From: a virus
Lineage: Duplodnaviria; Heunggongvirae; Uroviricota; Caudoviricetes
Strand: one strand, 5' to 3'
Length of the DNA stretch: 42,479 nt
Virus record (IMG/VR): IMGVR_UViG_2939127364_000002
Under the pieces are notes generated by a model. It was given only the letters and a program-made list of their open reading frames with translations, did no database searches and had not been told where the DNA came from. Numbering within the stretch: position 1 is the stretch's first letter; each line of letters opens with the position of its first letter. Made by a program: the position numbers and the translations under genes. Positions 2,149 to 7,075 of the stretch are shown here, in pieces.

Positions 2149-3043
2149 TGGCAACCTCCAGTTTCGCTTTGCATTCTATGTAAATGGCTTGTACGTTCTG
2201 CTGCAATTTCATTCCAGACGTCAGGCGATATGCTTCTGCAAAATATCGCTTCAAATCATCCATGTTTTCTGCCTGAGCCATTTCATCGCAAAGAAGTTGT
2301 ACTTTATCCATTATTTCCTGCTGGCGTTTCCGTTCATCTTCGCGGATATCTTCCTCTGATTTGTGCGGCATAACTGGTTCAGTCCACACACCTTCTTCTT
2401 CGTTTAGTACGTGAATAGCACTATCAAGACGTGATGCCTTAGGCCAATACTTGCTTGCACGCTTTACGACCGTCTTTCGCGCCATCTCATTCCAGTGATT
2501 TACCCATGGTCCTTTATCGCTGAATGCTGCCTTGCTTGTTTTCCTTACAGCCTCAATTTCAGCCAGACTCATCTCTTCCGTTAGATAATCACCTGCTGGC
2601 ATCTTAACTGTGCAGTAAACGCCAACGATATCACCACGATCACCGAAGGCGTTGTATTTATGGGTTGGTGCTTTATCAAGCCCGTTTGACTCATAGGTAT
2701 CGTTAGCATGAACAAGTTTTGCCTGACCCCATGAGATAACACCAGACTCCATTGCAATATGGAGCAATCCCATATAACTGATATCAAGGCACACCATGCC
2801 GTCGCGCGGAACCAGATAAGCCAGTTTGCTAGCTGGGTTTAAGGTGATGCCGATCGCCGCAACATTGATGATGGCGTTCTGTGCGCTGGTTGGATTTGCC
2901 AGTGCTGTTTTAGCCAGGTAATCGTTTTTCTGGAAATACTGAATTGCAAACTGGCTTTCCTTAGCCCATGTCACCGTCTGTTCAGTCAATGCTCCGCAGA
3001 ATAACTGCTCCTGCTGTTTAACGAATTCAACGATATTGCTCAT
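2132..3043 (-). CDS. recT: RecT-family single-strand annealing recombinase
   Basis: 303-aa ORF of typical RecT size and sequence character; GGAGAA RBS; sits in the recombination slot of the early-left operon. Confidence 0.7.
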   Translation of the reverse strand: MSNIVEFVKQQEQLFCGALTEQTVTWAKESQFAIQYFQKNDYLAKTALANPTSAQNAIINVAAIGITLNPASKLAYLVPRDGMVCLDISYMGLLHIAMESGVISWGQAKLVHANDTYESNGLDKAPTHKYNAFGDRGDIVGVYCTVKMPAGDYLTEEMSLAEIEAVRKTSKAAFSDKGPWVNHWNEMARKTVVKRASKYWPKASRLDSAIHVLNEEEGVWTEPVMPHKSEEDIREDERKRQQEIMDKVQLLCDEMAQAENMDDLKRYFAEAYRLTSGMKLQQNVQAIYIECKAKLEVASEQTI

Positions 3044-3351
3044 GCAGCTTCTCCAAAAATGTGTCTGCGTTTGAATATTGCGAAGGCATATTCAGCCTTA
3101 ACTCTTTCAGTTATTGCATCCCAGAACCATTCAGCGGCTTTTTCCTGATAGTTACAGTCATCATCTTCCAGCCAGTCGATAGCGTCCTTAGTGTGTTCAT
3201 CTGGTTTATATGAGCGAAGCATTTCGCTTATTGGGTCGCAACGTTTGCAGAGGCGATCAACTTCACTGTTGATTCGCTCGTAATCTTCATCAGTAAAACT
3301 TGCGATTATTTGCGATATTTCACGCTTATCATTCAGAGTCAGAATCATCAT
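3040..3351 (-). CDS. Hypothetical early protein (103 aa)
   Basis: Track ORF with AGGAG RBS 5 nt upstream of ATG; no family recognised. Confidence 0.5.
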   Translation of the reverse strand: MMILTLNDKREISQIIASFTDEDYERINSEVDRLCKRCDPISEMLRSYKPDEHTKDAIDWLEDDDCNYQEKAAEWFWDAITERVKAEYAFAIFKRRHIFGEAA

Positions 3352-3569
3352 CTTTCTCCTGTTCTTTGTGCTGATTGAGAATTTTGTTCATCTGACGAAT
3401 GAATTCTTCGTCTGACCAGTTATCTGTAAAACTCATTTCCTGCGATACCATGGAAGGTTGATAGCTGATTTCATCGCTTTATTTGCTTCAAGCCACATTT
3501 TGGAATCACCAATAAATCTGGCTATTACTGCTTTGTTTTGTGCTGCACGAAGCACCTGGTGATTGATGG

Positions 3570-3704
3570 CTATTTCATTGCGCATAACGCCTCCAGTTGT
3601 TTCTTTGCTGCTCTGATTAATTGTTTAACTCGGCGTGATAATTCAGATTCGTGCGGGTAGAAAGCGGACATGACGCCGCTACCCGCGAACTGAAAGTGCA
3701 TCAT
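3570..3704 (-). CDS. Hypothetical small protein (44 aa)
   Basis: MMHFQFAGSGVMSAFYPHESELSRRVKQ... with AAGGAG 7 nt upstream; the longer track ORF 3570..3809 would run through a terminator hairpin. Confidence 0.3.
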   Translation of the reverse strand: MMHFQFAGSGVMSAFYPHESELSRRVKQLIRAAKKQLEALCAMK

Positions 3705-3770
3705 GGGTAACTCCTTCTGTTTGATTACATAACGAAAACGCCTCAAGTGAAGCGTTATTGTTATGCATAT

Positions 3771-3794
3771 AAAAAAGCCCTCACACTGGAGGGC
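3771..3794 (-). terminator. Terminator-like hairpin within the early-left operon
   Basis: Minus-strand stem gccctc/gagggc with 6-nt loop followed by TTTTTT. Confidence 0.5.
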
Positions 3795-3912
3795 AAAGAA
3801 GATTTCCAATAATCAGAACAAGTCGGCTCCTGTTTAGTTACGAGCGACATTGCTCCGTGTATTCACTCGTTGGAATGAATACACAGTGCAGTGTTTATTC
3901 TGTTGTTTATGC

Positions 3913-3938
3913 CAAAAATAAAGGCCGACTATGCGGCC
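3913..3938 (-). terminator. Terminator-like hairpin directly after the 3939..4121 gene
   Basis: Minus-strand stem ggccg/cggcc with 6-nt loop followed by TTTATTTTTG. Confidence 0.5.
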
Positions 3939-4121
3939 TCAGAATGGTTTGTATCCATGTTTAAAGGCGAAATCGTATGCCTCATCATTAGTGCTGAAGT
4001 ATTCATAATCAGCAAATCCATCACGATAAAACTTGCAGCACCAATGAGGCGGAATGCCATCCTCATGACCATAGTCTTGATGGAACACATCCTCGACGAT
4101 GATATTTTCATCTTTTCCCAT
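3939..4121 (-). CDS. Hypothetical small acidic protein (60 aa)
   Basis: MGKDENIIVEDVFHQDYGHEDGIPPHWCCKFYRDGFADYEYF...; GAGGTGA RBS 4 nt upstream of ATG; rich in Asp/Glu and aromatics. Confidence 0.55.
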   Translation of the reverse strand: MGKDENIIVEDVFHQDYGHEDGIPPHWCCKFYRDGFADYEYFSTNDEAYDFAFKHGYKPF

Positions 4122-4183
4122 ATATCACCTCAAATAAGTGGTTTGCTGCCAAAACAATGAACCATCCGGAAATTCCAGATAGT

Positions 4184-4411
4184 TCATAATTCACTCTTCA
4201 ATACTTCCAGCTTACTAATCGCCGAAAGATATCCGCGCTGATAGGGCATCATCATTCCTTCGAGCTTGCCACTTCTTAACTCCTCCCTGAGCAATTGTAT
4301 TGCTTGATCAATAACCTCTGCCTTAGCGTCCTTTATGGCTTGCTTGCGGGGCTTTGCTTTCTGCTTTGGCAGATTTCTCAAGCATGATGGAATGTATGTC
4401 TGATTCATCAC
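4184..4411 (-). CDS. Hypothetical early protein (75 aa) immediately downstream of N
   Basis: Track ORF abutting the N stop codon; no family recognised. Confidence 0.5.
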   Translation of the reverse strand: MMNQTYIPSCLRNLPKQKAKPRKQAIKDAKAEVIDQAIQLLREELRSGKLEGMMMPYQRGYLSAISKLEVLKSEL

Positions 4412-4774
4412 TTACCTGGCTGTCAGTTGTTTTGATTTCCGGTATCCTGCCGCGTAAATGGCTACGTTTGGAAGACATACACCAGTTTCTGGTTGCTTAT
4501 GTCCAAACTCATTCGCGTACACAATGGCTGCTCTCTCCAGATTGCGTCTGTATTCTTTCTGTTGCCAGATCACGTCCTGTGCCATGAACTTAATTGGCTT
4601 AGCGTCTTCTATGCGCTCAGGCGTTTCGTGAGTACCTTTAGCCTGAATCTGCGCTCTGCTTAGAGTAGGGCGGTGTAATACTTCTGAGCTTGCCGTAATC
4701 TCATTCTGGAGCGCTGCACGACGCTCACGACGACGACCTGATGCTGAGCCATTGAAAGCTGTTCTGCGTGTCAT
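4412..4774 (-). CDS. N: N-like transcription antiterminator
   Basis: Arginine-rich N-terminus ...GRRRERRAALQ... resembles the lambda N arginine-rich motif; first gene left of the oL region; AGGAGG 7 nt upstream of ATG. Confidence 0.65.
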   Translation of the reverse strand: MTRRTAFNGSASGRRRERRAALQNEITASSEVLHRPTLSRAQIQAKGTHETPERIEDAKPIKFMAQDVIWQQKEYRRNLERAAIVYANEFGHKQPETGVCLPNVAIYAAGYRKSKQLTAR

Positions 4775-4877
4775 AGTGACCTCCTGATGAACTTTGGTGA
4801 TGCAATGGCCGGTGCTTATCTTCGGCTTGCCTCAACGGGCTGCATTTCATCGCATCCCAAAGTTCACTTTGGTTATT

Positions 4878-4891
4878 AGGCTTTTCAGCCT
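4878..4891 (-). promoter_or_regulatory. Candidate nutL boxB-like hairpin
   Basis: On the leftward transcript: CTACG then AGGCU-GAAA-AGCCU; same design as the hairpin at 7461..7474. Confidence 0.4.
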
Positions 4892-4961
4892 CGTAGATTC
4901 ATCTCTGAATCGTTGTATATTCACCGCCCTGGTGAGTAGTGCGTCCTGCTGATGGGTAAAC

Positions 4962-5005
4962 TTTATCGAAATGATAAATCAATGGCAATAGCAAAATGAT
5001 AAATT
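4962..5005. promoter_or_regulatory. oL/pL operator region
   Basis: Two copies of ATGATAAAT (4972..4980, 4996..5004) plus TTTATCG at 4962..4968; the same motif recurs at oR. Confidence 0.5.
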
Positions 5006-5181
5006 CCTTTGGTTTTCAAATATCGTATTGATTCTTATGGTGTTTTATTTTGTTGTAGGAATCCGACAGGATAAATAAAGAGATTTGAGGGAGATCTGGA
5101 TTGCGTGGTTTAGTGAGTTGTATCTGTTTATTTTTCAACAAATACAATTGGTTATGTGTTTTTAGGTGGGGGGATCGTGAG

Positions 5182-5209
5182 GCAAAGAAAACCCGGCTCT
5201 GTGGCCGGG
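5182..5209 (-). terminator. Rho-independent terminator closing the cI operon
   Basis: Minus-strand hairpin cccggc-(6 nt loop)-gccggg followed by TTTTCTTTG, directly after the stop at 5218. Confidence 0.6.
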
Positions 5210-5217
5210 TTAATGCG

Positions 5218-5838
5218 TTAATGCTGGGGAGTGATTTTTTTGTTGTCTGTTGGCTGGGTATTTTGTGGCGGCGCTTGCAAAGTGGAAGGCTGTTGCAAAG
5301 GTGCGTGGTCTGACTTTAAAGCTGATACCAGCCCGGGAATCGCAACTATTACAGCGATAATGACACTAAAAATGGCTAATCGTATAGAAATACCCGACTG
5401 AACACCACTAATTGCGGTATTAACCCCTGTTATTTGTCCTTGAATTCCTTCGAATCTCCCATTAATTGCTTTTATATCGCCAGCAGCGCTATCCATCTTT
5501 CCATCGATCTTGGACGATAGAGAGTTTATGGCTGCATTAAGTGATGCAAATTGGACATTAACGCTTTCACGAGATAGAGCCATGTCAGCCCTAATGGAAG
5601 AAGCAATAGACTCCATCTCTGCTTTATTAGCAGCTAAGCGAGCATCAAGTTCCTCTCTGCTGATCGTTCCCACTTCTTCCTCCGTTTGTGGCGGTTTTAT
5701 GTAATTATTTTGCACCTTGGTGGGAGAATTATCAAATTCAGCCTCAAAATAGGAACCGCCAACAACCTTCAACCTCCGGCTTTCAGATATGTTGGTGTCT
5801 TGCTTTCCATGATTATTTAAATTGCTGTCGTCACTCAT
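5218..5838 (-). CDS. Membrane-anchored coiled-coil protein of unknown function (206 aa), distal gene of the cI operon
   Basis: Polar N-terminus, heptad-like central region, single hydrophobic segment IRLAIFSVIIAVIVAIPGLVSAL near the C-terminus, Pro/Gln-rich tail; ATGA overlap with the upstream gene. Confidence 0.6.
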   Translation of the reverse strand: MSDDSNLNNHGKQDTNISESRRLKVVGGSYFEAEFDNSPTKVQNNYIKPPQTEEEVGTISREELDARLAANKAEMESIASSIRADMALSRESVNVQFASLNAAINSLSSKIDGKMDSAAGDIKAINGRFEGIQGQITGVNTAISGVQSGISIRLAIFSVIIAVIVAIPGLVSALKSDHAPLQQPSTLQAPPQNTQPTDNKKITPQH

Positions 5839-6370: not shown

Positions 6371-7075
6371 TCACGAATTTTTCAGCCACTCCCTTGCCTC
6401 GATGTCATCCAGATGGCGAGATTGCTTCAGAATACCAGCCACATACTCCACCTTTGCTACTTGATGATAAGGCAACGTTATAGGCCTGTGGTCCTGGTTA
6501 ATGCTTGTAAATTGGTATTCTCCATCTCTGTCATAGCCAAGAACCTTAATCATGTTGTGTCCTTCAACGGTTCTGACAAACACCTCATCACCCGGGAATA
6601 CTTTGGTGTTAGGCTCAATGAGTACATATTCTCCTGATTTTATTCTGGGCCACATGCTGTCTCCTTTCACACGAAGACCAAAGGCATCTGGATCATCGCT
6701 ATAAATTTTGAGCCACCCATCGCGCTCTTCGGTCATCTCGATGGCACCATCAACACCAAGAATTGCCTCACCAACCACGCGCACTAACCCTTTTCTTACC
6801 TGACCGACAAAAGTTAAAGAATCTGAGCATGATGCAATTGGTGTTACATCATGCACCAAATCAAGCCACCCATTAGGTAACCCAAGTGCGGCTTCAAATT
6901 TTCTTGCTAGTTTATCCCCTATGTTTCGAGTGCTTTTTTCACCGGAGACTTGCGTGAGTTGAGAAGGGCTAACCCCAAGCTTATCGGCAAAGCTTGCATT
7001 AGTGTTACCCGCGATTTTTTTATGCTCATCTAGCAAAAACGCTAGATTTGATTTGCGAATATCTTTGTTTTCCAT
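6371..7075 (-). CDS. cI: CI-type prophage repressor (HTH plus S24 LexA-like autopeptidase domain)
   Basis: N-terminal HTH ...SFADKLGVSPSQLTQV...; C-terminal ...GDSMWP... serine-lysine dyad signature; divergent from cro across the operator region. Confidence 0.9.
   Translation of the reverse strand: MENKDIRKSNLAFLLDEHKKIAGNTNASFADKLGVSPSQLTQVSGEKSTRNIGDKLARKFEAALGLPNGWLDLVHDVTPIASCSDSLTFVGQVRKGLVRVVGEAILGVDGAIEMTEERDGWLKIYSDDPDAFGLRVKGDSMWPRIKSGEYVLIEPNTKVFPGDEVFVRTVEGHNMIKVLGYDRDGEYQFTSINQDHRPITLPYHQVAKVEYVAGILKQSRHLDDIEAREWLKNS

Follow-up and report, generated by a model that had tools for sequence, protein, structure and literature searches.

What a small, strongly acidic protein encoded between N and cIII might do for a lambdoid phage, and why its gene stands at that position, are the questions raised by a locus in IMG/VR virus record IMGVR_UViG_2939127364_000002 (Caudoviricetes), a stretch of 42,479 nucleotides that is referred to here as the window. 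The gene, termed orf60, lies at positions 3939-4121 and had been proposed in a first-pass annotation, made from the sequence alone, as a candidate anti-defence factor. The analyses revealed that orf60 is a genuine but rare phage gene, and that it is an interchangeable cargo allele at a bounded site, the ral locus, of lambdoid pL operons. A domain of the same family was also found fused or adjacent to Gad2-type nucleotidyltransferases, and a counter-defence role is tentatively favoured.

orf60 is a cargo allele at the ral locus

The cassette and the alternative genes that occupy it in other prophages are made up of the following elements:

3939-4121, minus strand: orf60 coding sequence, ATG start, 60 amino acids, PHROG 37822, acidic and aromatic-rich, predicted strand-strand-strand-helix
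3771-3932, minus strand: trailer, non-coding and conserved, 97% identical to lambda between the ral stop codon and the ea10 start; 3' boundary of the cassette
4116-4153, minus strand: leader, GGCAGCAAACCACTTATTTGAGGTGATATATG..., common to the prophages with Nmad5, DUF7446 and an 83-amino-acid open reading frame (ORF) and to lambda upstream of orf28/ral; 5' boundary of the cassette
L033, 2630-3253: alternative cargo, Nmad5 family, 207 amino acids
L034, 2124-2366: alternative cargo, DUF7446 protein, 80 amino acids
L035, 2132-2383: alternative cargo, hypothetical protein of 83 amino acids

The DNA of the window matched that of lambda at the identity listed for the trailer from the stop codon of orf60 to the start of ea10, and in lambda this stretch begins exactly at the stop codon of ral. 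The trailer was present in 2,239 of 5,426 Escherichia coli genomes, where the gene directly upstream of it varied and included Ral, Nmad5, DUF7446 and assorted hypothetical genes. On the 5' side, a shared leader of 25-38 nucleotides contained the Shine-Dalgarno sequence and, where the match was longer, reached into the first bases of the gene; it extended from 4153 to between 4129 and 4116, depending on the prophage, and the copy located upstream of orf28/ral in lambda was 86% identical. The boundaries of the cassette were mapped by the identity breakpoints with the three alternative-cargo prophages (L033, L034 and L035), which at the 3' end fell at 3916-3944. In L034, the same orf75 and the same trailer were found, with the DUF7446 gene replacing orf60. 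As the same leader and trailer surround swapped cargos, orf60 represents one allele of a ral-locus cassette.

No function in lambdoid phages has been established for the Nmad5, DUF7446 and 83-amino-acid cargos. Nmad5 is predicted to be a base-modification enzyme, and point mutations in it let phages escape Tmn immunity (PMC11846954).

Comparison with the Ral protein of lambda (66 amino acids) showed that the two genes share the slot, the leader, the trailer at the stop codon and the operon, are similar in size and, as far as can be predicted for orf60, have early N-dependent expression in common. The proteins, however, had no sequence relationship (hhalign probability 2.4%), and orf60 had no Pfam or NCBIfam match; a Ral homologue was therefore rejected. 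Its location between N and ea10/cIII is that of the Ral family, and position alone does not give membership. Ral, which classically occupies the slot, enhances the methylation carried out by type I systems (Loenen and Murray 1986, as cited in PMC12904381), and nothing indicates that orf60 acts like Ral on type I methylation. Homologues of ral, sieB and gam were not found in the window, nor were homologues of ral or sieB found beside the other orf60 copies, where the flank of L024 had a weak Gam-like match.

It has been proposed that counter-defence genes concentrate in the early-left region of lambdoid phages (bioRxiv 10.64898/2026.07.10.737580). Oad2 of HK446, Abc2 and Gam resemble orf60 as cargo of this highly mosaic region, although cargo of their type is located within the recombination genes, whereas orf60 is upstream of cIII. 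Oad2 is related to P22 EaE, which belongs to another family.

The trailer itself comprises about 150 nucleotides of non-coding DNA, conserved beside a highly variable slot. It contains a hairpin at 3847-3894 (-24.9 kcal/mol, z -5.9) and has no Rfam match. An Rfam scan of 3600-5300 returned nothing close to any gathering score, indicating that this interval is not a known RNA gene. The hairpin GCCCTCCAGTGTGAGGGC at 3794-3777, which is unannotated in the lambda record, is presumably tL2a of the lambda map. The ea10 gene (DUF2528), present in lambda and mEpX2, is absent at 3726-3800, and the tL2a-like hairpin is joined almost directly to a hairpin that precedes cIII; at the same point, other orf60 prophages carry ea10, an HNH endonuclease or an 82-amino-acid ORF.

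The orf60 product and its family

The translation of orf60 is MGKDENIIVEDVFHQDYGHEDGIPPHWCCKFYRDGFADYEYFSTNDEAYDFAFKHGYKPF. The first-pass annotation had described a strongly acidic, aromatic-rich protein of 60 amino acids without naming the strand; the gene is on the minus strand, and the description of its product was borne out. The protein has an isoelectric point (pI) of 4.56 and a net charge of about -8 (13 D+E vs 5 K+R), which places it in the top 1.3% for acidity among the 157 ORFs of at least 50 amino acids in the window. F, Y and W account for 14 of the 60 residues, a fraction of 0.23 compared to a mean of 0.08 for the same ORFs, or about threefold. The G+C content of the gene is 40% compared to 50% for the window.

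Profile searches assigned orf60 to PHROG 37822, a group of unknown function, over residues 1-60 of 60 (E 1.7e-44), and all 25 aligned relatives matched this PHROG and no other. Homologues with 35-97% identity occur in unrelated phages: near-identical copies in mEpX1, in mEpX2 (as mEpX2_040) and in an Stx2c phage, copies with 40-49% identity in E. coli phage C1/S192 and in Chaseviridae phages of Aeromonas, and an additional relative in Shewanella phage KASIA. The family is nevertheless rare. Among 1.84 billion representative proteins, searched exhaustively with HMMER, only 27 clusters were found, and the family was detected in about 20 of 50,697 phage records, in one of 185,579 species-representative genomes and in none of 72,556 plasmids, while orf60 was present in 15 of the 5,426 complete E. 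coli genomes, chromosomal every time. It is thus nearly confined to phages and prophages, where it is located in early or replication regions. The absence from plasmids ruled out that orf60 is part of the conjugative leading-region anti-defence islands.

Q15 and P24 are invariant across the family, and F13, G22, W27, Y39, Y41 and A48 are nearly so, within the motif I-x-V-x-D-V-F-(H/Y)-Q ... D-G-I-P-(P/A)-H-W-C-V-(Q/K)-Y ... D-Y-E-Y-F-x-T-x-E-E-A. The acidity and the abundance of aromatic residues are family-wide traits (median pI 4.5, net charge -7, aromatics about 20%). A metal site formed by H14, H26, C28 and C29 was considered and dropped, because these positions vary across the family. Among the E. 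coli pairs that differ, the proportion of nonsynonymous differences (pN) was lower than that of synonymous differences (pS), with few sites and too few differences for a strong ratio of substitution rates (dN/dS). It is unlikely that orf60 is a non-functional ORF.

Zero matches to orf60 were obtained in Pfam, NCBIfam and PADLOC, and literature searches with its sequence, PHROG number and accession numbers found nothing. Judging by their titles and abstracts, none of the papers that name mEpX1 or mEpX2 is about orf60. Two further ORFs overlap the coordinates of the gene, at 3929-4111 (minus strand) and 3891-4160 (plus strand); the only trace of them was the C-terminal part of P0004, which follows the 3929-4111 frame, neither ORF having been searched separately. 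P0004, a metagenomic relative of 63 amino acids, is identical to the family over its first 31 residues before it enters that frame, and is probably a frameshifted family copy or a sequencing error.

Association of the orf60 domain with Gad2 and other enzymes

Relatives of orf60 were found fused to, or directly beside, Gad2-type nucleotidyltransferases. In P0029, a protein of 322 amino acids, the orf60 domain is N-terminal, and a linker connects it to a nucleotidyltransferase-like domain, identified as Gad2 (PF26128) by precomputed Pfam assignment. The fusion is present on independent contigs and was found in 11 of the 25 clusters of a marine clade, at identities as low as 50% and on contigs as long as about 137 kb; the domain was absent from the remaining 14 clusters. 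In the metagenomic phage L005, a separate orf60-type gene is located 11 nucleotides upstream of a Gad2-family gene. Its product (P0024) shares 57% identity with the fused domain of P0029, whereas the adjacent and attached enzymes share 26%, which argues that the association between the domain and Gad2 is old.

A comparable arrangement was observed in the cultured Shewanella phage KASIA, where p051, a member of a different orf60 subclade, lies 18 nucleotides upstream of p052 (L036, 3175-4122). The p052 product matched the Gad2-like clade with an hhalign probability of 97% (E 2.8e-11) and a hidden Markov model (HMM) E-value of 1e-56. It is annotated as a tRNA nucleotidyltransferase; it is a relative of the Gad2 family and not a demonstrated CCA-adding enzyme. 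Relatives of p052 were detected in 67 of the 50,697 phage records, including Bacillus phages grown on BEST7003. Since enzymes of this type are rare, their repeated adjacency to the orf60 domain would be unlikely to arise by chance.

Gad2 has been shown experimentally to cancel Gabija defence and is a predicted nucleotidyltransferase, and Gad2 of SPbetaL7 is toxic on expression (bioRxiv 10.1101/2023.05.01.538930); the mechanism of Gad2 is still unknown (PMC12904381). The likeness between the two systems consists in the orf60 domain being an N-terminal module in one Gad2 clade and an upstream gene in two other phages. Canonical Gad2 proteins, on the other hand, are mostly without the orf60 domain, and orf60 is without a nucleotidyltransferase: it aligns to residues 6-54 of P0029 only and lacks the catalytic domain by which Gad2 is recognised.

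Associations with other enzymes were also observed. In one orf60 relative, the domain is attached C-terminally to a MazG pyrophosphohydrolase, and the gene is located beside one for a DNA methyltransferase. In the Aeromonas phages, the homologue overlaps by 4 nucleotides a gene for an HD/YfbR-like 5'-deoxynucleotidase, with a DNA ligase gene nearby, and in L006 a relative adjoins DNA polymerase A.

Transcriptional context of orf60

The signals and genes that bear on the expression of orf60 are:

4131-4126, minus strand: Shine-Dalgarno sequence GAGGTG, with the GAGG core 6 nucleotides 5' of the ATG (4121-4119)
3940-3911, minus strand: terminator-like hairpin and U-run 3' of orf60, G+C-rich stem of 7 bp, overlapping the UGA stop codon
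4187-4157, minus strand: terminator-like hairpin 5' of the orf60 ribosome-binding site, stem of 14 bp followed by UUGUUUUGG, tL1-like position
4184-4411, minus strand: orf75, PHROG 5305, function unknown; upstream neighbour of orf60, abutting the N stop codon
4412-4774, minus strand: N antiterminator, which puts orf60 within the pL transcript
3570-3704, minus strand: cIII, the next gene 3' of orf60; its true start is the ATG after AAGGAG
6371-7075: cI, LexA-type repressor, in the leftward early operon of a lambdoid prophage

The leftward gene order is LexA-type repressor cI, two genes of unknown function at the rex position, N, orf75, orf60, cIII, kil, small ORFs, RecT and Gp157, in accordance with the earlier assignment of the gene to the early-left region of a temperate phage. 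The good ribosome-binding site and the terminator-like hairpin straight after the gene, both claimed previously, were likewise confirmed. This hairpin, GAGGCCG-CAUAGU-CGGCCUU followed by UAUUUUUGG, had a folding energy of -13.5 kcal/mol (z -2.8 against shuffled sequences), and its 3' half and U-run are part of the trailer shared with lambda. The hairpin on the 5' side, which overlaps the stop codon of orf75, was stronger (-20.8 kcal/mol, z -4.5).

No promoter-like site was found at 4122-4190, the interval between the upstream hairpin and orf60. With no promoter of its own, hairpins on both sides, both terminator-like by prediction, and N upstream, orf60 is probably made from the N-antiterminated pL transcript and would have early, N-dependent expression. 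The gene would be silent in the lysogen, and N-modified polymerase would read through it early after induction or infection. More distant enterobacterial lambdoid phages have the orf60 homologue directly after N. In phage C1 and its relative L025, the homologue comes first behind a near-consensus promoter (TTGACG, 17 nucleotides, TATAGT), a position that suggests early expression, and is followed by ParB-like and DNA methyltransferase genes.

The orf75 gene has homologues in other lambdoid phages and, with 38-42% identity, in the non-lambdoid Salmonella phages Sasha and SeSz-2 and E. coli phages Bas81 and Bas82. A fixed two-gene module of orf75 and orf60 was rejected, because most phages carrying orf75 are without orf60. 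The 75-amino-acid gene upstream of the orf60 relative in L008 is unrelated to orf75.

Predicted structure

Structure prediction had been named in the first-pass annotation as a check on the anti-defence proposal; it yielded a fold and no known anti-defence relative. The AlphaFold2 model of orf60, built from an alignment of 28 sequences, was of medium confidence (mean predicted local distance difference test, pLDDT, of 78.8), with strands at residues 7-15, 26-33 and 36-42 and a C-terminal helix at 45-54. The N-terminal domain of the fusion protein P0029, modelled independently, showed the same topology (pLDDT 79-95); the P0029 model supports the topology of the domain and carries no inter-domain contact information on docking. 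Structure searches with the orf60 model returned no significant structural relative.

The topology of the model resembles that of AP2-like and integrase N-terminal-like domains, which would make orf60 a small DNA-binding regulator. All match scores to this class were below significance, so that the resemblance is topological only, and no member of the family matched Pfam AP2 even at E 10. Furthermore, AP2 domains contact DNA through a basic surface, with which the acidic character of the family cannot be reconciled. With neither a fold match above noise nor a basic surface, an identity of this kind is hardly credible.

The small proteins T7 gp5.9, phi29 p56, Ugi and Ocr are strongly acidic, are made early and act stoichiometrically on host DNA enzymes, and phi29 p56 also has strands and a helix. 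None of the four was among the structural matches of orf60, their sequences not having been compared. Strong acidity is a property that orf60 has in common with the DNA mimics Ocr and ArdA, and no likeness in fold or sequence to a known mimic was found; in addition, a monomer of 55 residues is too small for extended mimicry unless oligomeric. Regarding the sponges of signal nucleotides (Tad1, Tad2, Acb2), orf60 had neither a Pfam nor a structural match. In L006, Acb2/Tad1-hairpin and Tad2-like genes are located about 5 kb from the orf60 relative, as separate genes.

Function of orf60

It is quite possible, and we tentatively favour this explanation, that orf60 is a counter-defence factor which binds a component of a host defence. 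Counter-defence is favoured because the ral slot elsewhere carries Ral or Nmad5, and because the orf60 domain is fused or adjacent to members of Gad2, a validated anti-Gabija family. The anti-defence proposal of the first-pass annotation thus gained support from context, namely the ral slot, the almost phage-only spread, the Gad2 fusion and adjacency and the conserved acidity, but not from any target, fold or anti-defence relative. The product would be an acidic domain of about 55 residues with three strands and one helix, too small for an enzyme, which would act stoichiometrically by binding a protein partner, probably through the conserved F-x-Q ... D-G-I-P-P-H-W loop region. Such binding may block a host factor that acts to limit phage DNA, or may redirect it, and the likeliest partner would belong to a host defence or to a nucleotide-based conflict system. 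Both this mode of action, by protein binding, and the counter-defence purpose are inferred. A more specific proposal, which appears improbable, is that the family serves Gad2-type nucleotidyltransferases as a dedicated partner module, acting either as a brake on the enzyme or as the recogniser of the host target (Gabija or another nucleotide-sensing or nucleotidyltransferase immune protein), and that the stand-alone copies neutralise the same target.

Several results weigh against a counter-defence role. No similarity of orf60 to characterised anti-defence proteins was found in sequence or structure searches; its sequence provided no link to solved structures, Pfam, NCBIfam or Ral, a profile search of PDB sequences gave noise only, and the model of the protein reached medium confidence. 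A Gad2-like gene was not found in the window, including by a search with an HMM of the enzyme part. Obligate pairing with Gad2 was rejected on this ground and because six other Gad2-like loci were without the domain within 1.5-2.5 kb. As most of the Gad2-like genes examined have no copy of the domain close by and the window has no such gene, the Gad2 link may not carry over to the subclade of orf60. Moreover, the neighbouring 5'-deoxynucleotidase, ligase, polymerase and MazG genes are as compatible with nucleotide or DNA metabolism as with counter-defence, and the neighbourhoods also fit a role in such metabolism unrelated to defence.

These neighbourhoods lead to the alternative that orf60 is an accessory or regulatory subunit that docks on nucleotidyltransferases, MazG and HD nucleotidases and tunes their activity or specificity, or restrains their toxicity, with no role in defence; in the lambdoid phages it would act on such an enzyme of the host and adjust nucleotide pools or DNA metabolism. 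The fusions to a Gad2-type nucleotidyltransferase and to MazG, the 4-nucleotide overlap with the HD/YfbR-like gene near a DNA ligase and the position beside DNA polymerase A are all consistent with docking, and the toxicity of SPbetaL7 Gad2 when expressed alone makes a restraining partner plausible (bioRxiv 10.1101/2023.05.01.538930). This explanation is nevertheless rather unlikely, given that the lambdoid phages with orf60 have no such enzyme adjacent and none was found in the whole window, that the ral slot otherwise carries host-directed cargo, and that the orf60 domain is missing from most Gad2-like enzymes.

Host-directed action without any dedicated defence system was also considered, with orf60 as a takeover factor that, like Kil, CIII and Gam, acts on a housekeeping protein of recombination, repair, replication, transcription or division, to the benefit of lytic growth or of the choice between lysis and lysogeny. 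Inhibition of host enzymes is common among small acidic early proteins, the same operon encodes the small host-directed proteins Kil and CIII, and the presence of the family in phages that infect E. coli, Aeromonas, Shewanella and marine hosts implies that the target should be widely conserved. On the other side, a gene that is found in so few E. coli genomes and is freely swapped is more typical of the accessory genes of an arms race, and the Gad2 link points to defence, so that this possibility, too, seems fairly unlikely. A moron expressed from the prophage for the benefit of the lysogen, for example in superinfection exclusion, would fit the G+C content below that of the window and the discrete cassette bounded by hairpins. 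It is very improbable, since orf60 has no promoter-like site upstream, is located 3' of N within a pL operon that is repressed and has no PADLOC match, and since a lysogen function would make no sense in the virulent phages (Chaseviridae, C1 and KASIA) that carry relatives.

Other genes of the early region

Between the repressor and N, in the position of lambda rexA/rexB, two overlapping genes are present on the minus strand:

5218-5838, minus strand: gene for a protein of 206 amino acids
5835-6323, minus strand: gene for a protein of 162 amino acids

A strong terminator-like hairpin (5190-5211) is located 3' of the pair. Neither gene had a significant match in Pfam or PADLOC, and the two are candidates for an exclusion or defence module expressed in the lysogen. 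The interval between kil and RecT contains, also on the minus strand, genes for proteins of 103 amino acids (3040-3351, PHROG 3486) and 40 amino acids (3329-3451, PHROG 17766), the functions of which are unknown.

Significance of the ral-locus cassette

The ral locus is a cleanly bounded cassette site, in which unrelated small genes interchange between a ribosome-binding leader and a trailer. It looks like a compact library of host-directed genes, and because its boundaries are so well defined, cataloguing the cargo would be a cheap route to host-directed phage proteins. Early accessory cargo of lambdoid phages is a known kind of gene; what is new here is the exact structure of the cassette in the ral slot and the link to Gad2. 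This link provides a concrete hypothesis, with Gabija or a related system as the target of orf60, and the gene is directly testable, as it is present in mEpX1 and mEpX2, cultured phages that infect E. coli K-12. The p051 and p052 genes of KASIA form a natural pair with which to ask which of the two, the enzyme or its target, is bound by the small domain. If the family is indeed a partner module of Gad2-type enzymes, orf60 would offer the first entry point to the mechanism by which Gad2 overcomes Gabija, and would represent a new anti-defence family in the ral slot of E. coli prophages.
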